This document shows positions 1 through 15,516 of a DNA stretch of 15,516 nt, one piece after another (position 1 is the stretch's first letter; every line of letters begins with the position of its first letter). A program made the translations under genes and the position numbers. The notes under the pieces were generated by a model. The model was not told the DNA's origin. It ran no database searches and saw nothing but the letters and a program-made list of their open reading frames with translations. Source of the DNA: a virus. Taxonomy: Duplodnaviria; Heunggongvirae; Uroviricota; Caudoviricetes. Location of the stretch: IMG/VR virus record IMGVR_UViG_2574180238_000004. One strand, given 5' to 3'.

Positions 1-1284
1 TTACAGACTTCTGGAAGGTTGCGCAGCTCTTACAACACGCGGTTGATCTTCCGCAGCGTCTTCCAGCGCACTTAAATCACGGTCTTTCACCTCTGGCATT
101 TTCAGCGCAGAGATTAAACCAATCACTGAATATGCCATGATCATAATGGCGATCGGATACCAGGATTCCGTCATGGTGCAGAAAATACCCGCCAGGATAG
201 GACCAAAACCGGAAGCGATAAGACCACCAATTTCTTTAGAAATAGCCATCCGGGTAAAGCGGTTTTTACAGCCGAACATTTCTGCCATGGTAATGTTTTC
301 CAGAGCAAATAATCCCAGCACCGCACAGTTATGAATCACAATCAGTGCAACCATAATGGTGCTCGGGGCATAGCTTTTATCTACAATGATAGAAAGCATT
401 GGCCATGCCAGCACAATCGCGGAGGTATTCATAATAATATACGGGATCCGGCGACCAATTTTATCGGATAACCAACCAAGGAACGGAATGGTCATAAAGC
501 CGAGAATCGAACTGATCATCAATGCATCTGTTGGAATTGCTTTGTTAAACAATAACGTCTGCACTAAATAGCCTGCAAGGAAAGTCTGAATTAACTCGGA
601 GTTACCCGCCTGACCAAAACGCAGCCCTGTTGCCAGCCAGAAGGATTTGCTCTGGAACATGCTACCAGCAGGTGCAGGTTTTGCTGTCGGTTGGTTACTG
701 TCGTTAACCTTCTCAAAGACCGGGCTTTCTTTCAGATTCATACGCAACCAGATAGCAAAGACCATCACGACAACGCTCGCCAGGAACGGTATACGCCATC
801 CCCACGCCAGCAGTTCCTCTTTACTGAGAATGAAGAACATAAAGGCCCAGATTGCCGTTGCGCTCAAGGTTCCGCAGTTAGTTCCCATAGCCACAAATGA
901 GGAGATAATTCCGCGCTTACCTTTTGGCGCATATTCCGCCAGCATCGTACCGGCACCGGAAATTTCCGCACCTGCACCCAACCCCTGAATAATACGCAAC
1001 GTCACCAGCAAGATGGGTGCAAAAACACCAATCTGTGCATAGGTCGGTAACACACCAATTAAGGTGGTACAGATCCCCATCATGGTGATGGTAATAAAGA
1101 GCACTTTTTTACGCCCTATTCTGTCGCCCATTTTGCCGAAAATAAATGCTCCGACAATACGCGCCACATAACCTGCACCGTAGGTTCCCATTGCCAGAAT
1201 TAACGCCATTGCCGTTGATGATTCAGGAAAAAATATTTCATGAAACACTAACGCTGCGCCGAGCGAATATAACTGGAAATCCAT
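1..1284 (-). CDS. ydfJ: MFS transporter of the metabolite:H+ symporter family (ydfJ-like), 5'-truncated at the prophage junction
   Basis: 427-aa ORF with multiple hydrophobic helices and the MFS loop motif GDRIGRKK. Against family members I recall (ShiA, KgtP) it starts at the conserved (W)YDFxxY box, so about 25-30 N-terminal residues are missing. An in-frame TGA lies two codons upstream of the first Met. K-12 ydfJ is the known Qin insertion target. Confidence 0.8.
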   Translation of the reverse strand: MDFQLYSLGAALVFHEIFFPESSTAMALILAMGTYGAGYVARIVGAFIFGKMGDRIGRKKVLFITITMMGICTTLIGVLPTYAQIGVFAPILLVTLRIIQGLGAGAEISGAGTMLAEYAPKGKRGIISSFVAMGTNCGTLSATAIWAFMFFILSKEELLAWGWRIPFLASVVVMVFAIWLRMNLKESPVFEKVNDSNQPTAKPAPAGSMFQSKSFWLATGLRFGQAGNSELIQTFLAGYLVQTLLFNKAIPTDALMISSILGFMTIPFLGWLSDKIGRRIPYIIMNTSAIVLAWPMLSIIVDKSYAPSTIMVALIVIHNCAVLGLFALENITMAEMFGCKNRFTRMAISKEIGGLIASGFGPILAGIFCTMTESWYPIAIMIMAYSVIGLISALKMPEVKDRDLSALEDAAEDQPRVVRAAQPSRSL

Positions 1285-1886
1285 AATTCACAGGTGTTTT
1301 TTCCCATCCTGTGGTTTCCTTGGCGTTTTCTAGGTTTTTTCAGATAGTTGCATTTTTTAAAAAGCATCCTAAGTTCGATCTCAGTGTCTATCTGGGGCCT
1401 ATTTCTGTCCCATATATGCCCCAAAAAAACTCCCCAACAGATAAGTAGTTTTTTCATGGATTTATGCGTAAAATCAAGAACGGCTGGAAATCATTCAATA
1501 CTCACACTATCGAAAAATTTACCAGCCAACCGCAGCACGTTCTTGCATAAGGCGTGTCTGCGGTTTTTCAACTATTCAGATACATCACTCCCATCACATT
1601 CATTCCTCCGCATCAAAGGCATATAGGCTATATCACCTTGATATTTTTCTTTTTCAGATAAAAACTGTTATCTATGTATACTTTTAAACCCAATCCGTGT
1701 AGAGTCTCTGCATAAGATAGTTTGCAGTTGCCGCTTCAGCTTGCGCCATAACCGCCTGATTTTTGCTGCCACCTGTTAGCATTCCTGTATACCTGAAACG
1801 ACAATGTTTATCTACGAACTTTAAGAACACCCAAGATAAAAATTGTCAACTATATCATATATAACACATTACTAATTCGAGGCTAT

Positions 1887-2000
1887 ATGAACAGCATACT
1901 GATAATCACTTCTCTCCTTATCATATTCAGCATTTTTAGTCATGCCCTAATAAAATTAGGGATTGGCATATCCAATAACCCAGACAAAACCGATGTATAA
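1887..2000 (+). CDS. Candidate small hydrophobic protein (37 aa, one predicted transmembrane helix); not in the ORF track
   Basis: ATG preceded by GAGG 4 nt upstream; translates to [37 protein letters not shown]. Lies in the AT-rich region just upstream of ydfK. Coordinates hand-derived. Confidence 0.35.
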
Positions 2001-2068
2001 GTCAACATATCCTGAATCAGACATACAATATCGCAATGAAAATCAATAATATTTTAAGGAATATCTTC

Positions 2069-2302
2069 ATGAAATCAAAAGACACCCTAAAGTGGTTCCC
2101 TGCGCAGCTTCCTGAAGTAAGAATTATCCTAGGGGATGCTGTAGTGGAAGTAGCAAAACAGGGAAGACCTATCAATACCAGAACATTGCTTGATTACATT
2201 GAAGGAAACATAAAGAAAAAATCATGGCTGGATAACAAAGAATTATTACAAACAGCGATATCAGTTCTTAAAGACAACCAAAATTTAAATGGTAAAATGT
2301 AA
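2069..2302 (+). CDS. ydfK: YdfK/YnaE-family prophage protein (cold-shock-associated family), 77 aa from the SD-supported start
   Basis: Track ORF 2036-2302. The internal ATG at 2069 (MKSKDTLKW...) has AAGGAA 8 nt upstream, whereas the 2036 ATG has no SD. Sequence matches my recollection of the Rac/Qin YnaE/YdfK pair, and the position next to pin fits the Qin order. Confidence 0.7.
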   Translation: MKSKDTLKWFPAQLPEVRIILGDAVVEVAKQGRPINTRTLLDYIEGNIKKKSWLDNKELLQTAISVLKDNQNLNGKM

Positions 2303-2618
2303 TATAATAAACTTACTTTTTTATCATTTTTCCACTTTAACAACATTTTGCTCCACTTTTCCACGACCAAACAACTTAAAATCTGGTTAAAATAACACGA
2401 AACACTATTCTTCTTCCTTGAGTCCGCCCGGAACTCGAAAAACAAACCGAGTTAAAGCCATTTTTCACAAAATCGATTTTGGGTCTCACCAAAATTACGG
2501 GGTTGCATACGCATTCGTTTATTTTCGAACGTGTACATACAAATATGCACAAAAATAATCAAAATTATTTTCTGCGATGCATTATGATATGAACACCAAT
2601 TTCGTATAGAGTCTCACT

Positions 2619-3209
2619 ATGTCTCGAATTTTTGCTTACTGTCGGATATCAACGCTGGATCAGACCACCGAAAATCAACGCCGGGAAATCGAAAGTGCAG
2701 GTTTTAAAATCAAACCTCAGCAAATAATCGAAGAACACATTAGCGGCTCAGCAGCAACCAGTGAGCGTCCTAGTTTTAACCGGTTGCTTGCTCGCCTGAA
2801 ATGTGGTGATCAATTGATTGTGACAAAACTGGATCGCCTTGGTTGTAATGCAATGGATATCAGGAAAACAGTGGAACAACTGACCGAAACAGGTATCAGA
2901 GTGCATTGCTTAGCATTGGGGGGCATTGACTTGACCAGTCCAACAGGAAAAATGATGATGCAAGTAATTTCAGCAGTTGCTGAATTTGAACGAGACCTTT
3001 TACTTGAACGCACTCATTCCGGGATAGTAAGAGCCCGCGGCGCAGGGAAACGTTTTGGTCGACCACCTGTGTTAAATGAAGAACAGAAACAGGTGGTATT
3101 CGAACGAATTAAGTCAGGTGTAAGTATAAGTGCCATTGCCCGGGAATTCAAAACCTCGCGGCAAACCATTTTAAGAGCCAAAGCAAAACTTCAGACACCT
3201 GACATATAA
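2619..3209 (+). CDS. pinQ: Serine-recombinase DNA invertase, Pin/Gin/Hin/Cin family
   Basis: 196 aa; N-terminal catalytic region with the nucleophile-serine context (YCRISTLDQ), resolvase-type core and C-terminal helix-turn-helix ([18 protein letters not shown]). Typical invertase length and placement next to tail-fibre genes. Confidence 0.9.
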
Positions 3210-3306
3210 AAAATAATCTCGGTGTGAGATGCTTTACGTCTTCCAAGCCCCCTTCCTTGCCGTAAATGGAAAGATACATCTAATTAAAGAATTTATATGT
3301 TTTACC

Positions 3307-3882
3307 CTACGGCAGTGCTGGCCATTCAATATCCTGTGCAGTTGACGTATCAACACGGTTCAGCAATACCCGATACTTTTTCCATGCTTCCAGCAACGAG
3401 ATTTCTTCCTCCGTTGCAATTTCCAGATCTGCAGCATCCTGAAGCGGCGCAATATGCTCACTGGCTACCTGCATCAGGTTGTTTTTTGTTTCTTCCGCCT
3501 CCCGGATCCGGAACAGTTTTTCTGCTTCCGTATCCTTCACCCAGGCTGTGCCGTTCCACTTCTGAAACTCCCCTTCCGGCGATAACCAGGTAACATTTTT
3601 CGGTAACGGACCGAGTTCAGAAATAAATAACGCGTCGCCGGAAGCCACGTCATAAACCGTTTTACCCCGATGATCTTCAACGAGATGCCACGATGACTCA
3701 TCACTGTTGAAAACAGCCACGAAGCCAGCCGGAATATCTGGCGGTGCAATATCGGTACTGTTTGCTGGCAGACCTGTATGAGGCGGAATATATGCATCAC
3801 CTTCACCAATAAATTCATTAGTTCCGGCCAGCAGATTATAAATTGTTATGGTCCGTGGTTGTTCACTCATTCTGAATGCCAT
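3307..3882 (-). CDS. tfaQ: Tail fibre assembly protein (lambda Tfa-like chaperone)
   Basis: 191 aa, near-identical over its length to lambda Tfa as I recall it ([12 protein letters not shown]...). Its ATG overlaps the stf stop (TAATG), indicating translational coupling. Confidence 0.9.
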
Positions 3883-6800
3883 TATGCAAGCCTCACAATA
3901 TAGTTAAATGCGATGTTTTTGACGGTGTTTTCCGCGTTACCAGCAGCGTTAACGGTGATGGTGTGTCCATGTGAGCCAATCGCAACGGAGTGCGTATGAG
4001 CACCAATACCGACAGTATGTGCGTGTGCACCTGCGCTTGCAGCAGTACCCGATACAGAGTGCGTATGAGCGCCTGCAGAAGAAGTGTTAACACTGTATTT
4101 AGAATAATCAGGTGATCCACTTCCCGGAGCACCACTGGAACCACCTGAAACAAATGTCATCGAATGGGTATGTGCACCGGCTGAAGCAGCCGTACCGCTA
4201 ACACTATGGGTATGTGCACCAGTGTTATTCGTGGATTTAGTGCCGTAATCAAACGATGATGTGGTTTTCGTCCCCAAATCCGTACTGGATGCGCTGGCGC
4301 TGTGGGTGTGCGATTTAATGCCGTCCTGTTCCTGAGACAATACGGCACGACCACTGGCGGGCTTGCCCTTAATCGTCCAGCCACGCATATCAGGAATAAC
4401 GCCTGACGGATAAGCCACTGCAAGTTTCGGGTATGCAGATTTGTCAAAAGTCTGCCCCTGCATCAGGGCATAGCCAGACGGAACGGTATCTGATGGCCAC
4501 GGGATTGGTGCGCCGACTGGGTAGCTTTCTGGTGGAAGATTTTTCGAGGTATAAACTTCTGCCCAGTCATCCTCAAAACCATAACCGTCTCTTGAAGAAC
4601 GGTAGAACAGACCACCATTTCTGTAATGCGCCTTCATCTGCAAGGTCCGGCAACTTCCGACTCCGGTATAGAAGTTAACCAGAATATAGCTGTCGCCAGA
4701 GCGGGTGACATTGTAAGCACCTGATTCGGCATTCCAGGGAACGCCACCATCCGCATCGGCATATGTATCCGTTGCCCTTCTGGCAAAAGCAGCCACATGC
4801 GCGGCGGTTAAAGTAATATCTCTGGAACCATCAAACTCAACACCAGAAACCAGTCTTGGCGTTTGCAGCTTTGTTGCTGTTAATGCATTACCGTTCAGAC
4901 TTGCGGACAGTTTGGTTCCAATAACCAGTTCGCCGGTTGCGTTATAAATAGCAAACGGTCTTAATGTATTCCAGCCACCATAAACATCACCTTGATTGGT
5001 AAGCAGCAGGTAAGTTTTAGCGCCATCATTACGCCATAATGCACCATACTCCCCACCTATCATTCGAATCTGATTACCACCACGCGCTACAATTTCGTCT
5101 GTGGCAAAAAGTTTTTTGCACGACAAATTATCGTTAACGATTAACGAATGAGACTCATAAAAACCACGCCCACTCTTAAAATCAAGGATAACGTCCGCCG
5201 CGATACATTCAGTCGCTGGATTTGTTGCCCCAAACTTATAGGTCGTATCATTAACAACGAGATCAGCACCAGGTGCGGATATTGACAGGCCATCTTCGAT
5301 AAACGCAAAAACAGGGAAAGCAGCGCCATCAACATAGAACACAGAGCGCAAATCATCGCCCTTATTACTCATCATTATTGAGTGGATGGCTCGTTCATTG
5401 TTTTGATATTGCCAGAACATTCCATAAGCATAACGCCCCCTGTCAGTCCAGCCACCAGGCATAACAAATCCGTTAAACTCGCAGTTATTCATCGGATCGC
5501 CTGCGGTTCGCGTTGCCGTGGTGATAATGACCCTTGATGCCAGTTCGCTTACTGAGCCAGCAGAACGCATAACAACAACAGGGTAATATTTTCCAGATGT
5601 TGCACCTGCAGGAGCGTTAACCCGCACATAACGCATACCACGCTTATCAGCAAAGTCTGTTTTACTGACCGCGTTAATGTTGTTCAGGAAGCGTCCCTTA
5701 TCGGGTATATCAGTGCCGTTCTGGTCTTTCTGCAGACGTTTCTCTGCATTGTCATAGGCTGATTTTACTGCCTTTGGCGTTGCCGCCAGCGTTTCAGACG
5801 TACTGTTGGTCGCACTGCTGAGCTGTACTATCCCCTTTTTCGTCGTGCTCGCATCCTCAAGCGCCACGGCGGATGCAATATCCTCTGCCCGTTTTGCTGC
5901 TGTCTCGGCGCGCGTTGCCGCGGATTCCGCCGTACTTTTGCTCTGAGCTGCCGCCGTCGCACTGCCAGCTGCCTCTGTCGCCTTCGTGGATGCCGTCGTG
6001 GCGCTGCCCTTCGCTGCTGACGCCTGTCTGGTCGCCTCATCTTTTGAAGCAGACGCCGATGATGCCGATGACGCCGCCGAACTGGCTGACGATGCGGCAG
6101 CCGTTTTTGAGGATTCTGCGCTGGTTTCCGACGCTTTCGCGTTCGTTTCGGATGTCTTCGCTGCGGAAGCTGACCTCGCTGCTACCGTGGCCTGTTCAGT
6201 GGCTTCGCCAGCCTTCGTTGTGGCTGTTGAAGCGGATGATGCGGCGCTTTCTGCCGACTTTCCGGCAGCGGTGGCACTGGCTGAGGCCTGCCCGGCATTT
6301 GTTGACGCGGCGCTGGCAGATGAGGCAGCCGCTGTTTTTGAGTCTGCTGCTGCGGAGGCACTCTGTCCCGCTGCCGTCTCAGAAGACTTTGCGTTCGTCT
6401 CGGACGTTTTTGCCGCCTTCGCGGAAGTTCCTGCCGCTGTTGCCGAGGAGGCTGCACGACTGGCGCTCGAGGCTGCGCTCGTTTCTGATGATTTTGCCGC
6501 CTCTTTTGAAGCCGACGCATCCCTGGCTGAGGTGGCAGCTTCTGACGCTTTCGTGGTCGCGGTGGATGCAGAAGTGGCGGCTGATTGTTCTGACGCTGCC
6601 GCATTCGTTTCTGACGTTTTCGCCGCACCGGCACTGGTAGCCGCCGCGCTTTTTGAGGACTCTGCAGCGGCAGCACTTTTTGAGGCTTCAGTGGCCTTTG
6701 TTGATGCCGTTCCTGCGCTGGAAGACGCTGACTGAGCCGACGACGCGGCCTGTCCGGCTGACGTGCTGGCTGCACGTGCTGAATCTGCAGCATCAGTCGC

Positions 6801-7232
6801 ACGGGTTGCCGCCTCACTGGCAGATGTGCTGGCATCACTGGCTGACTTCTTTGCGGCTGCCGTGTTCTGTGCCACCACGGACGCGTTACGCGCCACCTCT
6901 TCCACCATCAGTTCAAAACGACGCAGTGCCTCCGGACGGGCATCATCCTCCGTCATGGCACCGAGAAAATCATTCAGCGTACCGGGTTGAGAATCTTCAT
7001 ACACGGTGATGGTCCCGGCATGTGACGGCGGGAATCCCTCCACCAACAGAATAACGCTGTACTGACCGTACTCAACGTCCATGCTGTAACGCCCGGCTTC
7101 ATCCGGATTTTCTGAGGCCAGCGTGTTCACCACCACAGTGGTACTGTTACGTTTTGCTTTCAGCTGGATTGTGCAGTTCTGTACCGGTTTTCCTGTGCCG
7201 TCTTTCAGTACACCTGAAATCTTTACTGCCAT
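3882..7232 (-). CDS. stfQ: Side tail fibre protein (lambda Stf / T4 gp37-like), 1116 aa from the ATG
   Basis: N-terminus [20 protein letters not shown] matches lambda Stf. Long Ala/Ser/Thr-rich repetitive shaft, and a C-terminal tip with repeated GAHTHS / HxH motifs of the gp37 type. The track begins 2 codons upstream at a GTG (7238); the ATG at 7230-7232 is the likelier start. Confidence 0.9.
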
Positions 7233-7234
7233 AT

Positions 7235-7381
7235 TCACCCCACAAAAAAGCCCGCCTGAACCGGCGGGCTGTCATAACACTGTGTTACCTGGCTAATGGC
7301 CATTGCGGCGGCACCGGGCACCGCCGTTTTGCTGATACGGCTGAGGTTTTCAACGGCCTGCTCAAGACCTTTTATGGCCAT
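7235..7381 (-). pseudogene. Remnant of tail gene Z: the first ~29 codons of lambda Z fused to unrelated sequence
   Basis: Minus-strand ATG 12 nt after the FII stop encodes MAIKGLEQAVENLSRISKTAVPGAAAMAI, matching the lambda Z N-terminus. Similarity ends near 7293; the frame runs 18 more codons to a TGA overlapping the stf start region. Confidence 0.6.
7241..7270 (-). terminator. Intrinsic terminator immediately upstream of stf (minus-strand transcripts)
   Basis: 8-bp GC-rich stem AGCCCGCC / GGCGGGCT with a 6-nt loop, followed on the minus strand by a U-run (TTTTTTGTG). Confidence 0.55.
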
Positions 7382-7392
7382 ACATCCCCCTT

Positions 7393-7746
7393 TCAGCGGC
7401 GACGGTTAACGGCAGGCGGTACGCCCCGTCCAAGCCAGAGATGACAACTTCCGCCATCATCCGGCGAAACCCGATCTACCCAGAAATTTTCCTCACCGAT
7501 GGTCAGCGTGTCTCCACGCCGCAGCTGCCGCACCTCATCAGTCCGGACAAACAGGGACGGGCTGGAGCCTTCAACGCGCACGCCCTGTCCGGCATAGCTG
7601 ATATTTTCAGGGTCATCAAAAACACCACGTATCACAGCACCGGACTGCTCACCGGATGTCATGGTGGCTGACGTTCCCATGTACCCGCGTATCGTTTCAT
7701 CGGCGCGGGCAATGGCAGCATCGAACAGGTTATCGAAATCAGCCAC
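7393..7746 (-). CDS. Head-tail joining protein FII (lambda gpFII)
   Basis: 117 aa, near-identical to lambda FII (MADFDNLFDAAIARADETIRGYMGTSAT...). Start codon reads as GTG in my transcription. Confidence 0.85.
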   Translation of the reverse strand: MADFDNLFDAAIARADETIRGYMGTSATMTSGEQSGAVIRGVFDDPENISYAGQGVRVEGSSPSLFVRTDEVRQLRRGDTLTIGEENFWVDRVSPDDGGSCHLWLGRGVPPAVNRRR

Positions 7747-7757
7747 AGCGCCTCCCG

Positions 7758-8156
7758 TTATTGCATTCTGGCCAGGCCGCGCGCTGTCATTTCAGCTGAC
7801 ACACCGGCAGAGACACGAAACGCCGTTCCCGGCAGCACAAATGCCACAGGTTCATCCCGCGTGGCGTGAAGTGCATCAGTATGCAGCGTCACCAGTGCCA
7901 CGACCGTGACCAGTTCAGACGTATCCAGAATCACGGTATCCGGCTGCGCTGATCCCACCTCATTTTCATGTCCGGTCAGCACATTTTCCCGGCTGAGAGG
8001 GGTGTCCTGACCGGCAGTTTCATCCGTGTCATCAAGCTCCTCTTCCAGCTCTGCCACACGGAGCGCCAGTTCTTCTTTCGTCCCCGTCAGGCTGACATCA
8101 CGGTTCAGTTGTTCACCCAGCGAGCGGAGACGGGCAATCAGTTCATCTTTCGTCAT
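7758..8156 (-). CDS. DNA-packaging/head assembly protein FI (lambda gpFI)
   Basis: 132 aa from MTKDELIARLRSLGEQLNRDV, matching lambda FI. The track's 145-aa version starts 13 codons upstream and is probably an over-extension. Confidence 0.85.
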   Translation of the reverse strand: MTKDELIARLRSLGEQLNRDVSLTGTKEELALRVAELEEELDDTDETAGQDTPLSRENVLTGHENEVGSAQPDTVILDTSELVTVVALVTLHTDALHATRDEPVAFVLPGTAFRVSAGVSAEMTARGLARMQ

Positions 8157-8197
8157 GGACTCCTCCACAGAGAGAAAATGGCCCCGAAGGGCCATGA

Positions 8198-8673
8198 TTA
8201 CGCCAGTTGAACGGCCACGAACTCATCAGGATCAGCCAGCAGCATCAGCGGTGCTGACTGAATCATGGTGAACTCTCGCGCCGGATCGCCGGATGTCTTC
8301 CAGTTTTTCGGATAACGGGGAGACGCATTAATACCCTCACTCAATGCATCCGCATCCTGAATACAGCCATAGGTGCGCAGACCGCGTGCATGAGTGTTAC
8401 CCAGCACCATCGTGTTGTCCGGCAGGAAGTTCTTTTTGACGCCGTTTTCCACGTACTGTCCGGAATACACGACGATGGCCACATCGCCATACATCCCCTT
8501 ATAGGACACCGCTTTACCCAGGTCTTTCACCGCTGTCTCCAGCTCGGAATGAGAGCCACGACGGGTATCCAGCTTCTCCCTGACGGCTTTGAAGGAACGG
8601 AACAGCGCCCAGCCTTTCGGATCGAACACGATGATATTCACCACACCGCTGGCGTTCAGCGCGTAGGCTTCGA
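8198..8673 (-). pseudogene. 3' fragment of major capsid gene E (about the last 155 codons), no start codon of its own
   Basis: Translation ...IEAYALNASGVVNIIVFDPKGWALFRSFKAV...VQLA matches the C-terminal part of lambda gpE. Homology begins at the A/E deletion joint near 8673/8674; the track ORF begins at an internal GTG (8644). Confidence 0.8.
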
Positions 8674-9906
8674 TACGCGCATTTCGTAGCGGTCCAGCTG
8701 GGAGTCGATACCGGCGGTCAGGTAAGCCACACGGTCAGGAACGGGCGCTGAATAATGCTCTTTCCGCTCTGCCATCACTTCAGCATCCGGACGTTCACCG
8801 ATTTTCGCTTCCCACGTCTCACCGAGCGTGGTGTTCACGAAGGTTTTACGTTTTCCCGTATCCCCTTTCGTCTTCATCCAGTCTTTGACAATCTGCACCC
8901 AGGTGGTGAACGGACTGTACGCCGTCCAGATGTGAAAGGTCACACTGTCAGGCGGTTCAATCTCTTCACCGGATGACGAAAACCAGAGAATGCCATCACG
9001 GGTCCAGATCCCGGTCTTTTCGCAGATATAACGGGCATCAGTAAAGTCCAGCTCCTGCTGACGGATGACGCAGGCGTTATGCTCACAGAGATAAAACACG
9101 CTGGAGGGGTCATCCGGCATCCATTTGAGGCCAAACGGCGTCTCTTTGTCGCCAAATTTAAGGTACTGCTCCTTCCCGCAGTGCGGGCAGGCAACATGAA
9201 AACGCATAAAATGCGGGGATTCACTGGCTGCACGCTCAATCTGGCAGGTGCCTCTCACTTTGGGCGTGGAGCCACGGATGGACTTTGGCCAGACCGAGCC
9301 TTCAATACGTTTGTCGCCAAGGAACGTCGGAGAGCCTTCCTGTTCAATATCCTCATCAAAGGCAGCAAGTTCATCATACCCCGCCACATCCACCGACTTT
9401 TCACGGTAGTTTTTTGCCGCTTTACCGCCCAGGCACCAGAAGCCACGACCATTGGTGAAACGCTTCATAGTGAGCGTGTTATCCCGGTGCTTTTTGCCAT
9501 ACCACGGAGCCAGCGCCAGCAGCGACGGAATATCGCGGATGGTCGGCTCAACGTGGGTTTTCATAAAGTTCTCGGCATCACCATCCGTCGGCAACCAGAT
9601 AAGTGTGTTGCGCTGCTTATGCTCTATAAAGTAGGCATAAACACCCAGCAGCATTTTGGAATAACCGACACGGGCAGACTTCACCACATTCACCTCACGG
9701 ATGTAGTCGCTGCCCATCGCATTCATGATGGCCCGCTGAAAGGGCAGTGTTTCCCAGCGCCCTTCCTGGTATGCGGATTCTTTCGGGAGATAGTAATTAG
9801 CATCCGCCCATTCAACGGCGGTCTGTGGCTCCGGCCTGAACAGTGAGCGAAGCCCGGCGCGGACAAAATGCCGCAGCCTGTTAACCTGACTGTTCGATAT
9901 ATTCAC
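8656..9906 (-). pseudogene. Terminase large subunit (lambda gpA), truncated after ~410 of 641 codons
   Basis: MNISNSQVNRLRHFVRAGLRSLF... tracks lambda gpA up to ...GIDSQLDRYEMRV, then 5 foreign codons and a stop. The C-terminal third is absent. The start overlaps the Nu1 3' end by 26 nt, as in lambda. Confidence 0.85.
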
Positions 9907-10426
9907 TCAGCAACCCCGGTATCAGTTCATCCAGCGCGGCTGCTTTGTTCATGGCTTTGATGATATCCCGTTTCAGGAAATCAACATGTCGGTTTTCCAG
10001 TTCCGGAAAACGCCGCTGCACCGACAGGGGGATCCCGTCGAGAATACTGGCAATTTCACCTGCGATCCGCGACAGCACGAAAGTACAGAATGCGGTTTCC
10101 ACCACTTCAGCGGAGTCTCTGGCATTTTTCAGCTCCTGTGCGTCGGCCTGCGCACGCGTAAGTCGATGGCGTTCGTACTCAATAGTCCCTGGCTGGAGAT
10201 CTGTCTCGCTGGCCCGCCGCAGTTCTTCAACTTCCCGGCGCAGCTTTTCGTTCTCAATTTCAGCATCCCTTTCGGCATACCATCTTATAACGGCGGCAGA
10301 GTCATAAAGCACCTCATTACCCTTGCCACCGCCTCGCAGAACGGGCATTCCCTGTTCCTGCCAGTTCTGAATGGTACGGATACTCGCACCGAAAATGTCA
10401 GCCAGCTGCTTTTTGTTGACTTCCAT
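9881..10426 (-). CDS. nohA: Terminase small subunit (lambda Nu1 homologue), full length
   Basis: 181 aa, near-identical to lambda Nu1 (MEVNKKQLADIFGASIRTIQNWQEQGMPVLRGGGKGNEV...), including the N-terminal winged-HTH DNA-binding region. Confidence 0.9.
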   Translation of the reverse strand: MEVNKKQLADIFGASIRTIQNWQEQGMPVLRGGGKGNEVLYDSAAVIRWYAERDAEIENEKLRREVEELRRASETDLQPGTIEYERHRLTRAQADAQELKNARDSAEVVETAFCTFVLSRIAGEIASILDGIPLSVQRRFPELENRHVDFLKRDIIKAMNKAAALDELIPGLLSEYIEQSG

Positions 10427-10439
10427 TGTTCATTCCACG

Positions 10440-10650
10440 GCCAAAAACAGAGAAAGGAAACGACAGAGGCCCAAAAGTTCGTTTTCAGCACCTGTCGTTT
10501 CCTTTCTTTTTAGGGGGTATTTTAAATAAAAACATTAAGTTACGACGAAGAAGAACGGAAACGCCTTAAACCGGAAAATTTTCATAAATAGCGAAAACCC
10601 GCGAGGTCGCCGCCCCGTAACCTGTCGGATCACCGGAAAGGACCCGTAAA
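10440..10650 (-). promoter_or_regulatory. Lambda-type cos packaging site (cosB R elements, cosN, cosQ side)
   Basis: The reverse complement of 10604-10615 is GGGCGGCGACCT, the lambda 12-nt cohesive end, flanked by ...CGACAGGTTACG, which I recall as the lambda right terminus. R-element-like repeats (GGAAACGACAG / CTGTCGTTTCC near 10455-10500, a third copy near 10545-10560) lie between cosN and the nohA start. Confidence 0.8.
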
Positions 10651-10814
10651 GTGATAATGATTATCATCTACATATCACAACGTGCGTGGAGGCCATCAAA
10701 CCACGTCAAATAATCAATTATGACGCAGGTATCGTATTAATTGATCTGCATCAACTTAACGTAAAAACAACTTCAGACAATACAAATCAGCGACACTGAA
10801 TACGGGGCAACCTC

Positions 10815-11048
10815 ATGTCAACGAAGAACAGAACCCGCAGAACAACAACCCGCAACATCCGCTTTCCTAACCAAATGATTGAACAAATTAACATCGCTCT
10901 TGAGCAAAAAGGGTCCGGGAATTTCTCAGCCTGGGTCATTGAAGCCTGCCGCCGGAGACTGTGCTCAGAAAAAAGAGTTTCTTCTGAAGCAAACAAAGAA
11001 AAGAGTGACATTACTGAATTGCTCAGAAAACAGGTCAGACCAGATTGA
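10815..11048 (+). CDS. ynfO: Small ribbon-helix-helix (CopG/Arc/MetJ-like) DNA-binding protein, YnfO-like
   Basis: 77 aa; basic N-terminal tail, then a beta-strand / helix / G-x-S-capped helix pattern (RNIRFPNQMIEQINIALEQKGSGNFSAWVIEACRRRL). Position right after nohA/cos fits Qin ynfO; the symbol is from synteny and length only. Confidence 0.6.
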   Translation: MSTKNRTRRTTTRNIRFPNQMIEQINIALEQKGSGNFSAWVIEACRRRLCSEKRVSSEANKEKSDITELLRKQVRPD

Positions 11049-11090
11049 AGCAATTTAGATAATCGTGCAGACTACGCCCCCTCATATCAC

Positions 11091-11516
11091 ATGGACGGTT
11101 TATCTATGGATCAGGTAGTCATTTTTAAACAAATATTTGATAAAGTTCGAAACGATTTAAACTATCAATGGTTTTATTCTGAGCTAAAACGTCACAATGT
11201 CTCACATTACATTTACTATTTAGCCACAGAGAATGTTCATATTGTATTAAAAAATGATAATACAGTGTTATTAAAGGGCCTAAAAAACATTGTGTCTGTC
11301 AAATTTTCAAAGGATAGGCATCTTATAGAAACGACCTCTAATAAGCTGAAATCCAGAGAGATCACATTTCAGGAATACAGAAGAAACCTTGCTAAAGCAG
11401 GAGTTTTTCGGTGGGTTACAAATATCCACGAACAAAAAAGATATTACTATACCTTTGATAATTCATTACTATTTACTGAAAGCATCCAGAAAACTACACA
11501 GATCTTACCACGCTAA
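11091..11516 (+). CDS. ydfO: DUF1398-family prophage protein, YdfO-like
   Basis: 141-aa ORF; an internal ATG at 11106 would give 136 aa. Identified from synteny with Qin and my recollection of the YdfO/YbcV family; no SD is obvious for either start. Confidence 0.6.
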
Positions 11517-11610
11517 ACCATAACGTCCGGCTTCTCTCACTCCTGAGCCGGACTGCATTGGTTTAATAAAAACCATCAACAATTGTGATTTAGATATTCG
11601 GAACCATTCA

Positions 11611-11638
11611 AATATAACAAAACCCCGTAAAAACGAGG
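11611..11638 (-). terminator. Probable intrinsic terminator downstream of gnsB
   Basis: On the minus strand: CCUCGU / ACGGGG stem (one G-U pair), 4-nt loop, followed by UUUUGUUAUAUU. Confidence 0.4.
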
Positions 11639-11667
11639 TTTATGGATAAATTTTATTATTGAATACA

Positions 11668-11841
11668 TCAGATTAAATTAATCTTGACATCATAGCTTTC
11701 AAGACCCGTCATTTTTTCCCGTGCGGTAAACTGAATACTGGTAACTTCTTTCCCGGTCTTTTTCTTAAGTTCAATAATTTTTTTTGTTATATATTCAGAA
11801 ATATCTGCTTCTGCTTTTGTTTTTAAGTTTTCAATATTCAT
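11668..11841 (-). CDS. gnsB: GnsB-like small protein (57 aa), below the ORF-track size cutoff
   Basis: Hand translation of the minus strand gives MNIENLKTKAEADISEYITKKIIELKKKTGKEVTSIQFTAREKMTGLESYDVKINLI, with an AGAGGAA SD upstream. Matches my recollection of the GnsA/GnsB family (...FTAREKMTGLESYDVKI...). Confidence 0.7.
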   Translation of the reverse strand: MNIENLKTKAEADISEYITKKIIELKKKTGKEVTSIQFTAREKMTGLESYDVKINLI

Positions 11842-12012
11842 CATTTCCTCTTTTAGTCTGTTATGACTTTCCAGTTACACAGTAAGTCGATTATATGGTG
11901 CAAACGTGTAAAAGATAAGATGAAACATCGCAATAATCAACATACGATAGTCTAAATTTTACACAAACAGACAAAGAGAATTTTCCTGAATTATCAATGC
12001 AATAGCATCAAA

Positions 12013-12168
12013 TCAACTCAAGAGCCTTATTGCTGCTTCCAGAATTTCTTCTGAAGTAACATGTCGATCCGCGGCTACATAAATGACTTTATGATCTCCG
12101 GTCAGAGATGGAAACCCTGCGGCCATTACAGTAAGGTGTGTTTTTTCGCCATTTGGATATTCACGCAT
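12013..12168 (-). CDS. ynfN: YnfN-like small prophage protein; the 51-aa form starts MREYPNGEK, but in-frame upstream starts reach 12243 or 12285
   Basis: Track ORF 12013-12285 (90 aa). The reading frame is clear but the true start is not; the 51-aa version matches the length I recall for K-12 YnfN. Position between gnsB and cspI fits Qin. Confidence 0.45.
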   Translation of the reverse strand: MREYPNGEKTHLTVMAAGFPSLTGDHKVIYVAADRHVTSEEILEAAIRLLS

Positions 12169-12286
12169 GATGGTGTTAACTCCAGTCATCGCTGGCACTA
12201 CCACTGCTGGTTCAGAGTTAAAAAAAACTATGATTTTTTTCATGATGTTACCGTAGTATGTGAGTATCCATCGAATAGACACCAAG

Positions 12287-12313
12287 CAAAAAAGCTCCCG
12301 AAGGAGCCTTCAT
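12287..12313 (-). terminator. Intrinsic terminator downstream of cspI (possibly bidirectional)
   Basis: GCTCC / GGAGC stem with a 4-nt loop (UUCG on the minus strand), followed on the minus strand by UUUUUUG. A weaker interrupted T-tract follows on the plus strand. Confidence 0.45.
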
Positions 12314-12514
12314 TTTCACTTTTTTAAATCCAACGACAGACGGCTGGCATTTAAGTATTGTGAAATATTATCAAATGTAATCATCATTGATTTACAAAAG
12401 ATACATTTTGCCCCGAAAGGATTCATGTCAGAAACATCAAAAGATGATGTTCTATACTGGGAACCATGACAACACGGGCATCTAAAGTGAATATGGTTTG
12501 TAATATTGTCTACC

Positions 12515-12727
12515 TCAAAGCGCCACTACATGAACAGCGGCAGGACCTTTAGGTCCGTTCTCAATACCAAATTCAACTTCCTGATTCTCAGTTAATGTTT
12601 TGAAATCGTTGCTCTGAATTGCTGAGAAATGGACAAACACATCTTTGCTGCCATCTTTCGGCGTGATGAAACCAAAACCTTTTTCAGGGTTAAACCATTT
12701 CACTAAACCAGTCATTTTGTTAGACAT
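12515..12727 (-). CDS. cspI: Cold-shock protein, CspA family (CspI-like)
   Basis: 70 aa with the canonical cold-shock-domain motifs ([20 protein letters not shown]1-like, [11 protein letters not shown]2-like). About 360 nt of AT-rich sequence upstream, consistent with the long 5' leader of csp genes. Confidence 0.9.
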
Positions 12728-13089
12728 AATTATTACCTTTTGAAGAAATTAGCCCTTGGGCAGAATGGTCCGAAAAAAAATATCAGAGAGAAAAACCAAC
12801 AAGGAAATCTCAAGAGGTACAAATAATAAAATTATAACAATGACTGCTTCAGATAAATTTGTAACAAACCAGAACACCATTAACGCATGATTAACCACCC
12901 ATAGCAAGGATTACTTTTGTAAAGAAAAACACAGCAATGAAAGAATAGCTTTATTTATTAATAAAACGTGTCATTCTGATTAAGACCTTTTATCTTACCC
13001 TTAAGATTTCAGGAATTTTGGCTCATGGAAGAGTCCTTTTTATTTAAATTTTACATTCCGCGATGTAAATGTTCCGATTTAATATTACC

Positions 13090-14113
<1,024 letters not shown>

Positions 14114-14117
<4 letters not shown>

Positions 14118-14425
14118 AGATATTTATGATGAGGACGCTCGTGCTTATTGGCAGGATTTTCAATCTTAAAGGAGTACTGATGCTGCAGATAAGACTCAAC
14201 TTTTTCTGACAATTTTTCTGCTACTTCCAGGAAGACTTGCCGGACGCTCCTTCTGGCTGCTGCCTCATAAAACTCCAGCGCAGCTCCTTCAACACGGTCC
14301 ATGGCGACATCCAGGTCAAAAATTTCACCGTCAAAGCGTTCTTTGTCCTGTAAGGCTACAGTTACCGTAACTTTATTCTCAAAATTACGGACTCCTTTCA
14401 CAACCAGTTCATAGTCTTGAGTCAT
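14114..14425 (-). CDS. ydfR: YdfR-like protein (DUF1327), soluble and acidic, inside the lysis cassette
   Basis: 103 aa, no hydrophobic segment; GAGAGGAGAG SD upstream; stop overlaps the endolysin ATG. Symbol from Qin synteny. Confidence 0.65.
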
Positions 14426-14429
14426 TGGA

Positions 14430-14507
14430 TTACTCTCCTCTCGCAGCCTTACGCCTGTCTTCTTTAATCTTGAAATAAAGATTTGTCAGATACGTCAGCA
14501 GGCCAAA
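14430..14507 (-). pseudogene. essQ: 3' fragment (25 codons) of a class II pinholin gene (S21/EssQ-like), cut by IS3
   Basis: The minus-strand frame is open from the IS3 boundary to a TAA 4 nt before the ydfR ATG and reads [25 protein letters not shown], matching the charged C-terminal tail of the phage 21 S21 pinholin as I recall it. Not in the ORF track (too short). Confidence 0.55.
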
Positions 14508-14572
14508 TGATCTTACCCAGCAATAGTGGACACGCGGCTAAGTGAGTAAACTCTCAGTCAGAGGTGACTCAC

Positions 14573-14872
14573 ATGACAAAAACAGTATCAACCAGTAAAA
14601 AACCCCGTAAACAGCATTCGCCTGAATTTCGCAGTGAAGCCCTGAAGCTTGCTGAACGCATCGGTGTTACTGCCGCAGCCCGTGAACTCAGCCTGTATGA
14701 ATCACTGCTCTACAACTGGCGCAGTAAACAGCAAAATCAGCAGACGTCTTCTGAACGTGAACTGGAGATGTCTACCGAGATTGCACGTCTCAAACGCCAG
14801 CTGGCAGAACGGGATGAAGAGCTGGCTATCCTCCAAAAGGCCGCGACATACTTCGCGAAGCGCCTGAAATGA
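14573..14872 (+). CDS. insE: IS3 transposase OrfA (InsE-like, helix-turn-helix plus leucine-zipper region)
   Basis: [44 protein letters not shown]...; GAGG SD 8 nt upstream of the ATG at 14573. The track begins 3 codons earlier at a GTG. Confidence 0.85.
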
Positions 14873-15516
14873 AGTATGTCTTTATTGAAAAACATCAGGC
14901 TGAGTTCAGCATCAAAGCAATGTGCCGCGTGCTCCGGGTGGCCCGCAGCGGCTGGTATACGTGGTGTCAGCGGCGGACAAGGATAAGCACGCGTCAGCAG
15001 TTCCGCCAACACTGCGACAGCGTTGTCCTCGCGGCTTTTACCCGGTCAAAACAGCGTTACGGTGCCCCACGCCTGACGGATGAACTGCGTGCTCAGGGTT
15101 ACCCCTTTAACGTAAAAACCGTGGCGGCAAGCCTGCGCCGTCAGGGACTGAGGGCAAAGGCCTCCCGGAAGTTCAGCCCGGTCAGCTACCGCGCACACGG
15201 CCTGCCTGTGTCAGAAAATCTGTTGGAGCAGGATTTTTACGCCAGTGGCCCGAACCAGAAGTGGGCAGGAGACATCACGTACTTACGTACAGATGAAGGC
15301 TGGCTGTATCTGGCAGTGGTCATTGACCTGTGGTCACGTGCCGTTATTGGCTGGTCAATGTCGCCACGCATGACGGCGCAACTGGCCTGCGATGCCCTGC
15401 AGATGGCGCTGTGGCGGCGTAAGAGGCCCCGGAACGTTATCGTTCACACGGACCGTGGAGGCCAGTACTGTTCAGCAGATTATCAGGCGCAACTGAAGCG
15501 GCATAATCTGCGTGGA
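14869..15516 (+). CDS. insF: IS3 transposase OrfB (InsF-like, DDE integrase catalytic domain), 3'-partial at the window edge
   Basis: ATG overlapping the orfA stop; hand translation [36 protein letters not shown]...[33 protein letters not shown]... carries the DDE-transposase region. The frame is open to the end of the window, so it is absent from the ORF track. Confidence 0.8.

Follow-up and report, generated by a model that had tools for sequence, protein, structure and literature searches.

The DNA analysed here, a stretch of 15,516 nucleotides (the window), very probably records a recent insertion of IS3 that split the holin gene of a defective Qin-like prophage of E. coli, an element adjoining ydfJ. 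On the reading that we favour, a full-length or near full-length IS3 would recently have transposed between codons 46 and 47 of a holin gene homologous to essQ and essD, and the lysis cassette would thereby have been left without its trigger. The coordinates of the features concerned, together with IS3 insertions into the same cassette in other genomes, are collected in Table 1.

Table 1. Features around the holin/IS3 junction in the window, and sites of IS3 in the same lysis cassette of other E. coli genomes
Feature	Position	Strand	Remarks
3' remnant of class II holin gene	14430..14507	-	F47-E71 + TAA; pseudogene fragment without start codon
Insertion point	14505..14507	.	AAA (TTT = codon F47, holin sense); inferred 3-bp target duplication
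ydfR (DUF1327)	14114..14425	-	PF07041, E = 1e-53; intact; between holin and endolysin
rrrQ-type lysozyme, SAR-like N-terminus	13584..14117	-	PF00959, E = 1e-23; 177 aa; intact
rzpQ (DUF2514)	13090..13587	-	PF10721, E = 8e-39; N-terminal TMD; candidate inner-membrane spanin; intact
rzoQ-type lipoprotein spanin	13140..13394	-	+1 frame inside rzpQ; lipobox LTSC; read from sequence; intact
IS3, first 1009 of 1258 bp	14508..15516	+	runs off window end; left inverted repeat starts at 14508
orfA	ATG 14573 to stop 14872	+	HTH_Tnp_1 (PF01527)
orfB, partial	from 14869	+	HTH_21 (PF13276) + rve (PF00665); final third beyond window
IS3 in holin	codon 15/16		F3_13_1_3
IS3 in holin	codon 20/21		STEC383
IS3 in holin	codon 21		STK78-E
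IS3 in holin	codon 32/33		FT130
IS3 in holin	codon 44/45		OW1E2; opposite orientation
IS3 at holin ribosome-binding site			D2
IS3 in ydfR			C9; SEV1/SEV4
IS3 in rrrQ			MB57; a 13-genome group
IS3 upstream of holin	up to ~730 bp		four alleles

The holin remnant and its junction with IS3

Translation of the minus strand between ydfR and IS3 yielded 25 sense codons followed by TAA (14430-14432), the end of this remnant lying 4 nt upstream of the ATG of ydfR (14423-14425), whose Shine-Dalgarno sequence, AGGAG (complement of 14435-14439), is still contained in it. Taken alone, the 25-aa peptide matched the Pfam family PF04971, 'Bacteriophage P21 holin S', with 35.8 bits (E = 7.9e-9) against a family cutoff of 26 bits, and aligned to profile positions 43-63 of 64; its content amounts to half of the second transmembrane domain (TMD2) plus the charged C-terminal tail. 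This holin likeness is not a matter of chance, as an intact 216-nt holin gene has exactly these 78 nt at its 3' end (see below). A reading made from the sequence only had described a 25-codon open frame with a holin-type charged tail between ydfR and IS3, which proved correct in every detail, and had noted that the frame is open up to the first IS3 base. The last holin base is 14507 and the first IS3 base 14508, and the frame runs 10 codons further into IS3 before meeting a TAG. No in-frame ATG, GTG or TTG occurs inside the remnant or between the remnant and this TAG; because no such codon follows the IS3 stop, the remnant is untranslatable. A hybrid reading frame, or translational fusion, across the junction is excluded by the same lack of an in-frame start and by the TAG 10 codons into IS3.

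The break separates V46 from F47, midway through TMD2, whose hydropathy peak covers residues 36-54, and the insertion point falls in a run of five T residues of the holin gene (14503-14507), of which only AAA at 14505-14507 is left in the window. The view that IS3 interrupts the holin was thus borne out, the gene being of the phage-21/933W class II type and split at codon 46/47; judged from its sequence, the window's holin is expected to be null. For annotation, the 78-nt remnant is best described as the 3' half of an IS3-split holin pseudogene of the essQ type, and a working Qin lysis trigger should not be assumed in strains carrying the holin::IS3 allele. A promoter-like pair on the plus strand (14483-14511; TTGTCA, 17-nt spacer, AATGAT; 9/12 matches) spans the junction, the -35 box coming from the holin remnant and the -10 box from the start of IS3, and is aimed at the transposase genes. 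It was the sole site in a 2-kb scan, in which shuffled sequence yields 2.8, and is probably a chance match.

The element itself, a member of the IS3 group in the IS3 family, was recognised by its left end, TGATCTTACC, found at 14508, and its sequence from that position onward reads TGATCTTACCCAGCAATAG. Positions 14508-15516 are 99.8-99.9% identical to complete annotated IS3 copies of 1258 bp, the matching RefSeq copies being annotated as 'IS3-like element IS3 family transposase', and the window ends 249 bp short of the right end of IS3. The two transposase frames overlap in an ATGA at 14869-14872, with orfB in the -1 frame; the interval singled out by the sequence-only reading (14430-14872) also takes in the left inverted repeat and orfA. 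At 14706-14707, two adjacent bases of the window's copy differ from the other copies examined (CTG versus CAA), which changes Gln to Leu in OrfA (ESLLYNW versus ESQLYNW).

Relatives were found by searching public assemblies for the tail-fibre protein of the window (1118 aa), an exact copy of which is present in E. coli 1303 and in draft or Logan contigs. Three contigs (L004, L005 and L008) are 99.98% identical to window positions 1-14507, with 2-3 substitutions over 14.5 kb; they cease to be colinear with the window precisely at 14507/14508, where they carry an intact 216-nt gene encoding a 71-aa holin. The intact protein matched PF04971 over profile positions 1-63 of 64 (116.7 bits, E = 4e-34) and displays an MKSM dual-start motif, two TMDs, of which TMD1 is weakly and TMD2 strongly hydrophobic (hydropathy maxima of 0.7 at residues 10-28 and 1.72 at residues 36-54), and a charged C-terminal tail. 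Its sequence coincides fully (100% identity) with the holin of HannyBb, a phage record in the databases, and shares 80% identity with S of Stx phage 933W. The same junction occurs in L009, a Logan contig assembled from the reads of another sample (ERR3328946), which stops 27 nt beyond it inside IS3; the junction is therefore not peculiar to one assembly. Because most contigs of the window's lineage that reach the holin gene carry the intact version, and flanking sequences scarcely differ, the insertion is, on this sequence comparison, recent, lineage-specific and polymorphic. Window positions 596 and 9379 are among the 2-3 single-nucleotide differences separating the window from the uninterrupted contigs; one difference gives a G230E variant of YdfJ that was seen only on draft contigs of at most 152 kb and is common to Logan SRR1186802.

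Downstream lysis genes and the state of the prophage

The genes downstream of the break are intact. Positions 11200-14507 are identical to a RefSeq genome in which ydfR, rrrQ and rzpQ are annotated at this place, and ydfR is 100% identical to the copy of strain F3_13_1_3, annotated as WP_000189916.1. The RrrQ-type lysozyme has the catalytic triad E35-x8-D44-x5-T50, of the T4-lysozyme type (E-x8-D-x5-T); its residues 7-24 form a weakly hydrophobic segment in which 11 of the 18 residues are G, A or S, and its alignments to R21 (3HDE; SAR region included) and RrrD (4ZPU) begin at residue 9. The embedded rzoQ-type frame extends over 13140-13412, the interval given in Table 1 being that obtained with M7 as the start; the lipoprotein had no Pfam match. 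Going by these sequence features, the labels 'SAR endolysin' and 'Rz/Rz1' are reasonable for the lysozyme and for the rzpQ/rzoQ pair, and the earlier placement of ydfR, a SAR endolysin and Rz/Rz1 downstream of the break agrees with the Pfam matches, the triad and the lipobox. The ydfR gene is wedged between holin and endolysin with a 4-nt spacing and overlapping junctions, and the order holin-ydfR-lysozyme-Rz recurs in HannyBb (PP925841; ydfR at 3221-3532 of contig L024), deposited as a complete phage genome; ydfR might be a lysis accessory gene.

The remainder of the prophage is extensively eroded. The terminase gpA breaks off in the nuclease domain (position 95 of 294), capsid protein E is reduced to positions 191-328 (the C-terminal 40%), and the only tail genes left are a 48-aa fragment of Z, the side tail fibre and its assembly gene. 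As read from these truncations, the prophage was already a non-viable remnant before IS3 arrived. The suggestion that the insertion makes the prophage lysis-defective accordingly does not hold as it was put, since the element was already a remnant, with gpA, E and tail genes cut or missing. It is also overstated in that SAR endolysins are exported by Sec and slowly released from the membrane spontaneously, so that without a holin they still lyse the cell, later and less synchronously (PMC9239132). If the lysis genes of the window are expressed, lysis by spontaneous SAR release would be delayed and ragged, not abolished. The insertion may be one step in the neutral decay, or in the disarming, of a cryptic prophage, and this is the simplest account because the prophage cannot make particles anyway.

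The morphogenesis module (7393-10426, minus strand) is a deletion patchwork, composed of Nu1 (181 aa), gpA (416 aa) and the C-terminal 148 aa of E, after which come FI, an FII-like gene (PF05354) and the 48-aa Z fragment, which runs straight into the side tail fibre. The latter (3882-7238, minus strand; 1118 aa) includes a low-complexity region of about 350 aa rich in Ala, Ser and Thr as well as C-terminal GAHTHS repeats; several long spurious open reading frames, among them 5873-6640 and 5986-6735, arise from the low-complexity region, on both strands. The pin invertase gene adjoins the tfa gene.

The far side of IS3 and transcription of the lysis genes

On simple insertion, the 5' piece of the holin gene would lie beyond the right end of IS3 after a duplicated TTT and would stop at a TGA in the IS3 terminus; its product would be a 47-aa peptide, comprising TMD1 and half of TMD2, that should be unable to form holes. 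The right side is predicted to read ...ATTACGTGGGTAGGATCA + AAA + AACCAGGCTACCCAGC..., continuing with holin codons 46 to 1, ynfU, cspB, cspF and quuQ. In the computed product, the IS3 terminus supplies TGA directly behind F47 once TTT has been duplicated. A deposited protein, EQQ23618.1 ('phage lysis protein', from a 924-kb contig of E. coli HVH 91), is exactly the 44-aa stretch M4-F47 of the holin, a length that fits only a 3-bp duplication, as 0 bp would give 43 aa and 4 bp 49 aa; a 47-aa version of the fragment with one substitution has also been deposited (P0007). The expectation of a 5' holin fragment and a 3-bp duplication, raised by the sequence-only reading, thus found its match in a protein of strain HVH 91. 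Where complete IS3 copies lie elsewhere in the holin gene of RefSeq genomes, both holin halves flank the element, and 3-bp duplications are clear at three other IS3 copies of the cassette, the duplication of the STEC383 copy being of 3 or 4 bp. The exact left junction of the window was present in none of 5,426 RefSeq complete E. coli genomes, and a 40-mer spanning it had no match in genome, viral and metagenome contig collections. From the annotation of another strain and from the analogous alleles, we consider it highly likely that the window carries a simple insertion.

Turning to transcription, a consensus scan of the intact allele placed a promoter-like site beside the Q gene, about 1.85 kb upstream of the holin, and a simple scan found at least one strong terminator-like hairpin between the two. 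Lambdoid late genes are expressed through Q antitermination; because terminator-like hairpins stand between the promoter-like site and the intact holin, expression of the lysis genes should, by analogy, already depend on it. On contig L004, the promoter-like site and a GC-rich hairpin follow Q (Antiterm), a terminator-like hairpin follows cspB (721-750, 796-819 and 2122-2141), and the layout resembles a lambdoid pR'/tR' arrangement whose late leader has taken up cold-shock genes. The insertion adds 1.26 kb between the late promoter and the lysis genes. As no terminator-like site was detected on the antisense strand of IS3 by the simple scan, Q-modified read-through across the element is plausible, and transcription of the downstream genes would require RNA polymerase modified by Q to travel from the late promoter antisense through IS3. 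The proposed separation of the late promoter from the lysis genes therefore stands in the physical sense, but silencing need not follow.

Two other accounts of the region bear on how the lysis genes are transcribed. IS3 may have mediated a rearrangement, by recombination with another IS3 copy or by an adjacent deletion, that removed or moved the 5' holin piece and the Q/late-promoter region, in which case the lysis genes would be permanently cut off from late transcription. The right end of IS3 does lie outside the window, a median of about 4 IS3-matching places per E. coli genome offers substrates for recombination, and in F3_13_1_3 the IS3 in the holin is truncated by an IS21-family element followed by unrelated DNA; nevertheless, EQQ23618.1 is exactly the 5' fragment that a simple insertion duplicating 3 bp would leave, four of the five further IS3 copies in the holin are simple insertions that preserve both halves, and the flanking sequence hardly differs from the uninterrupted allele, hence the event is very recent. 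A rearrangement is thus improbable. The other account, put forward in the sequence-only reading, has an outward IS3 promoter driving constitutive transcription of ydfR, the endolysin and the spanins. IS elements, including members of the IS3 family, can carry outward or hybrid promoters, with such a promoter predicted for about 26% of the family (PMC12095673), but it is the left end of IS3 that is turned towards ydfR, its known promoter directs transcription inwards, and the transposase genes are read in the direction away from ydfR. A consensus scan of the minus strand detected no promoter-like site, either in 12900-14900 or in a complete IS3 copy. Moreover, a dual-reporter study took the terminal 150 bp of IS3, left and right, as parent sequences on the grounds that no promoter activity could be detected at either; in the family, junction or hybrid promoters draw their outward -35 box from the right end (PMC12095673). 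Selection would probably also act against constitutive expression of a SAR endolysin together with spanins. Such activation is very improbable, and the idea is not upheld. A simple insertion, with any late transcription arriving through the element, remains our preferred reading.

Recurrent insertions in the lysis cassette and related systems

A census was made with RefSeq queries joining cassette anchors to either IS3 end, and revealed IS3 at about 14 distinct sites within about 1.4 kb of the cassette among RefSeq E. coli, in both orientations (Table 1). The 216-bp holin frame holds 5 of the 14 alleles versus 2.1 expected from its length (P ~0.05, uncorrected), a count to be read with the uneven detection of the census in mind, as insertions inside the anchor sequence ranked low; with so marginal an excess, a holin-specific IS3 hotspot is unconvincing. 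An apparent orientation bias was rejected, the query having joined same-strand pieces only, and inverted queries recovered just as many copies facing the other way. The protein collection includes other null alleles of the holin (P0003, P0010 and P0014), namely (i) a -1 frameshift in the same run of five T residues that IS3 entered here (tail VLAC*; 29 contigs), (ii) an IS1 insertion after T54 (tail VMTPTY*, from the IS1 end) and (iii) a form ending after L56 in 330 contigs, probably a nonsense allele.

Loss of the trigger might have been selected because it spares the host an abortive lysis driven by the prophage, the endolysin and spanins being retained for some host function. Such disarming could account for five further IS3 sites in the 216-bp holin frame and one at its ribosome-binding site in RefSeq, for the IS1 allele, and for the frameshift and the probable nonsense allele (330 contigs); besides, the homologous DLP12 lysis module affects vesiculation in K-12 (PMC7918800). 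Yet ydfR, rrrQ and the upstream region are also hit by IS3, truncated RzpQ variants are common too, the holin exceeds its neighbours only marginally (5 of 14 against 2.1, P ~0.05 before correction), and deletion of the DLP12 holin alone had only a 1.3-fold effect on vesiculation (PMC7918800). Neutral decay accounts for all of the observations, and we hold selected disarming to be unlikely; the broader proposal, that the holin, with at least 6 IS3 sites in 216 bp besides the IS1, frameshift and nonsense alleles, has repeatedly and independently been lost by selection across E. coli with the SAR endolysin and spanins kept for an envelope function, is likewise unlikely, although if true it would make the loss an observable step of prophage domestication. 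The recurrent inactivation of the holin fits the ordinary decay of cryptic prophages. The lysis cassette gathers independent IS3 hits in many lineages, a pattern that could be used to address selection versus drift.

The event is of a known kind, an IS insertion making a pseudogene in a defective prophage, and contains no new biology; its significance beyond annotation is small. Analogous IS3-split holin alleles are already annotated by PGAP in several genomes, namely FT130 (NZ_CP040090), STK78-E (NZ_CP162185), STEC383 (NZ_CP091026), OW1E2 (NZ_CP067245) and F3_13_1_3 (NZ_CP074754), both halves being labelled 'phage holin, incomplete'. These alleles share with the window the insertion sequence, the 216-bp gene and the cassette order holin-ydfR-rrrQ-rzpQ, and 3-bp duplications are seen among them; they differ from the window in that IS3 sits at other codons (Table 1) than 46/47 and in both orientations. 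A literature search for essQ and rrrQ returned almost only unrelated matches.

Among characterised systems, S21/R21 of phage 21 resembles the uninterrupted allele in its PF04971 holin, MKSM dual start, weak TMD1 and strong TMD2, and R21 (3HDE) aligns with the window's lysozyme, including the N-terminal SAR region, albeit distantly (63 bits); the window departs from phage 21 in its truncated holin and in the extra ydfR (DUF1327) between holin and endolysin. S21-68 with an amber codon at V43, truncated inside TMD2, serves as a non-functional pinholin control (PMC9239132); V43 would correspond to V46 in S71 numbering, within two codons of the break in the window, the former being an engineered plasmid nonsense mutation and the latter a natural IS insertion. 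The essD-ybcS(rrrD)-rzpD/rzoD genes of DLP12 in K-12 form a homologous holin/endolysin/spanin cassette of a cryptic prophage, with RrrD (4ZPU) matching RrrQ, and this module is reported to influence vesiculation and is regarded as domesticated (PMC7918800); DLP12 is, however, a different prophage, is without ydfR, and has an intact holin in K-12.
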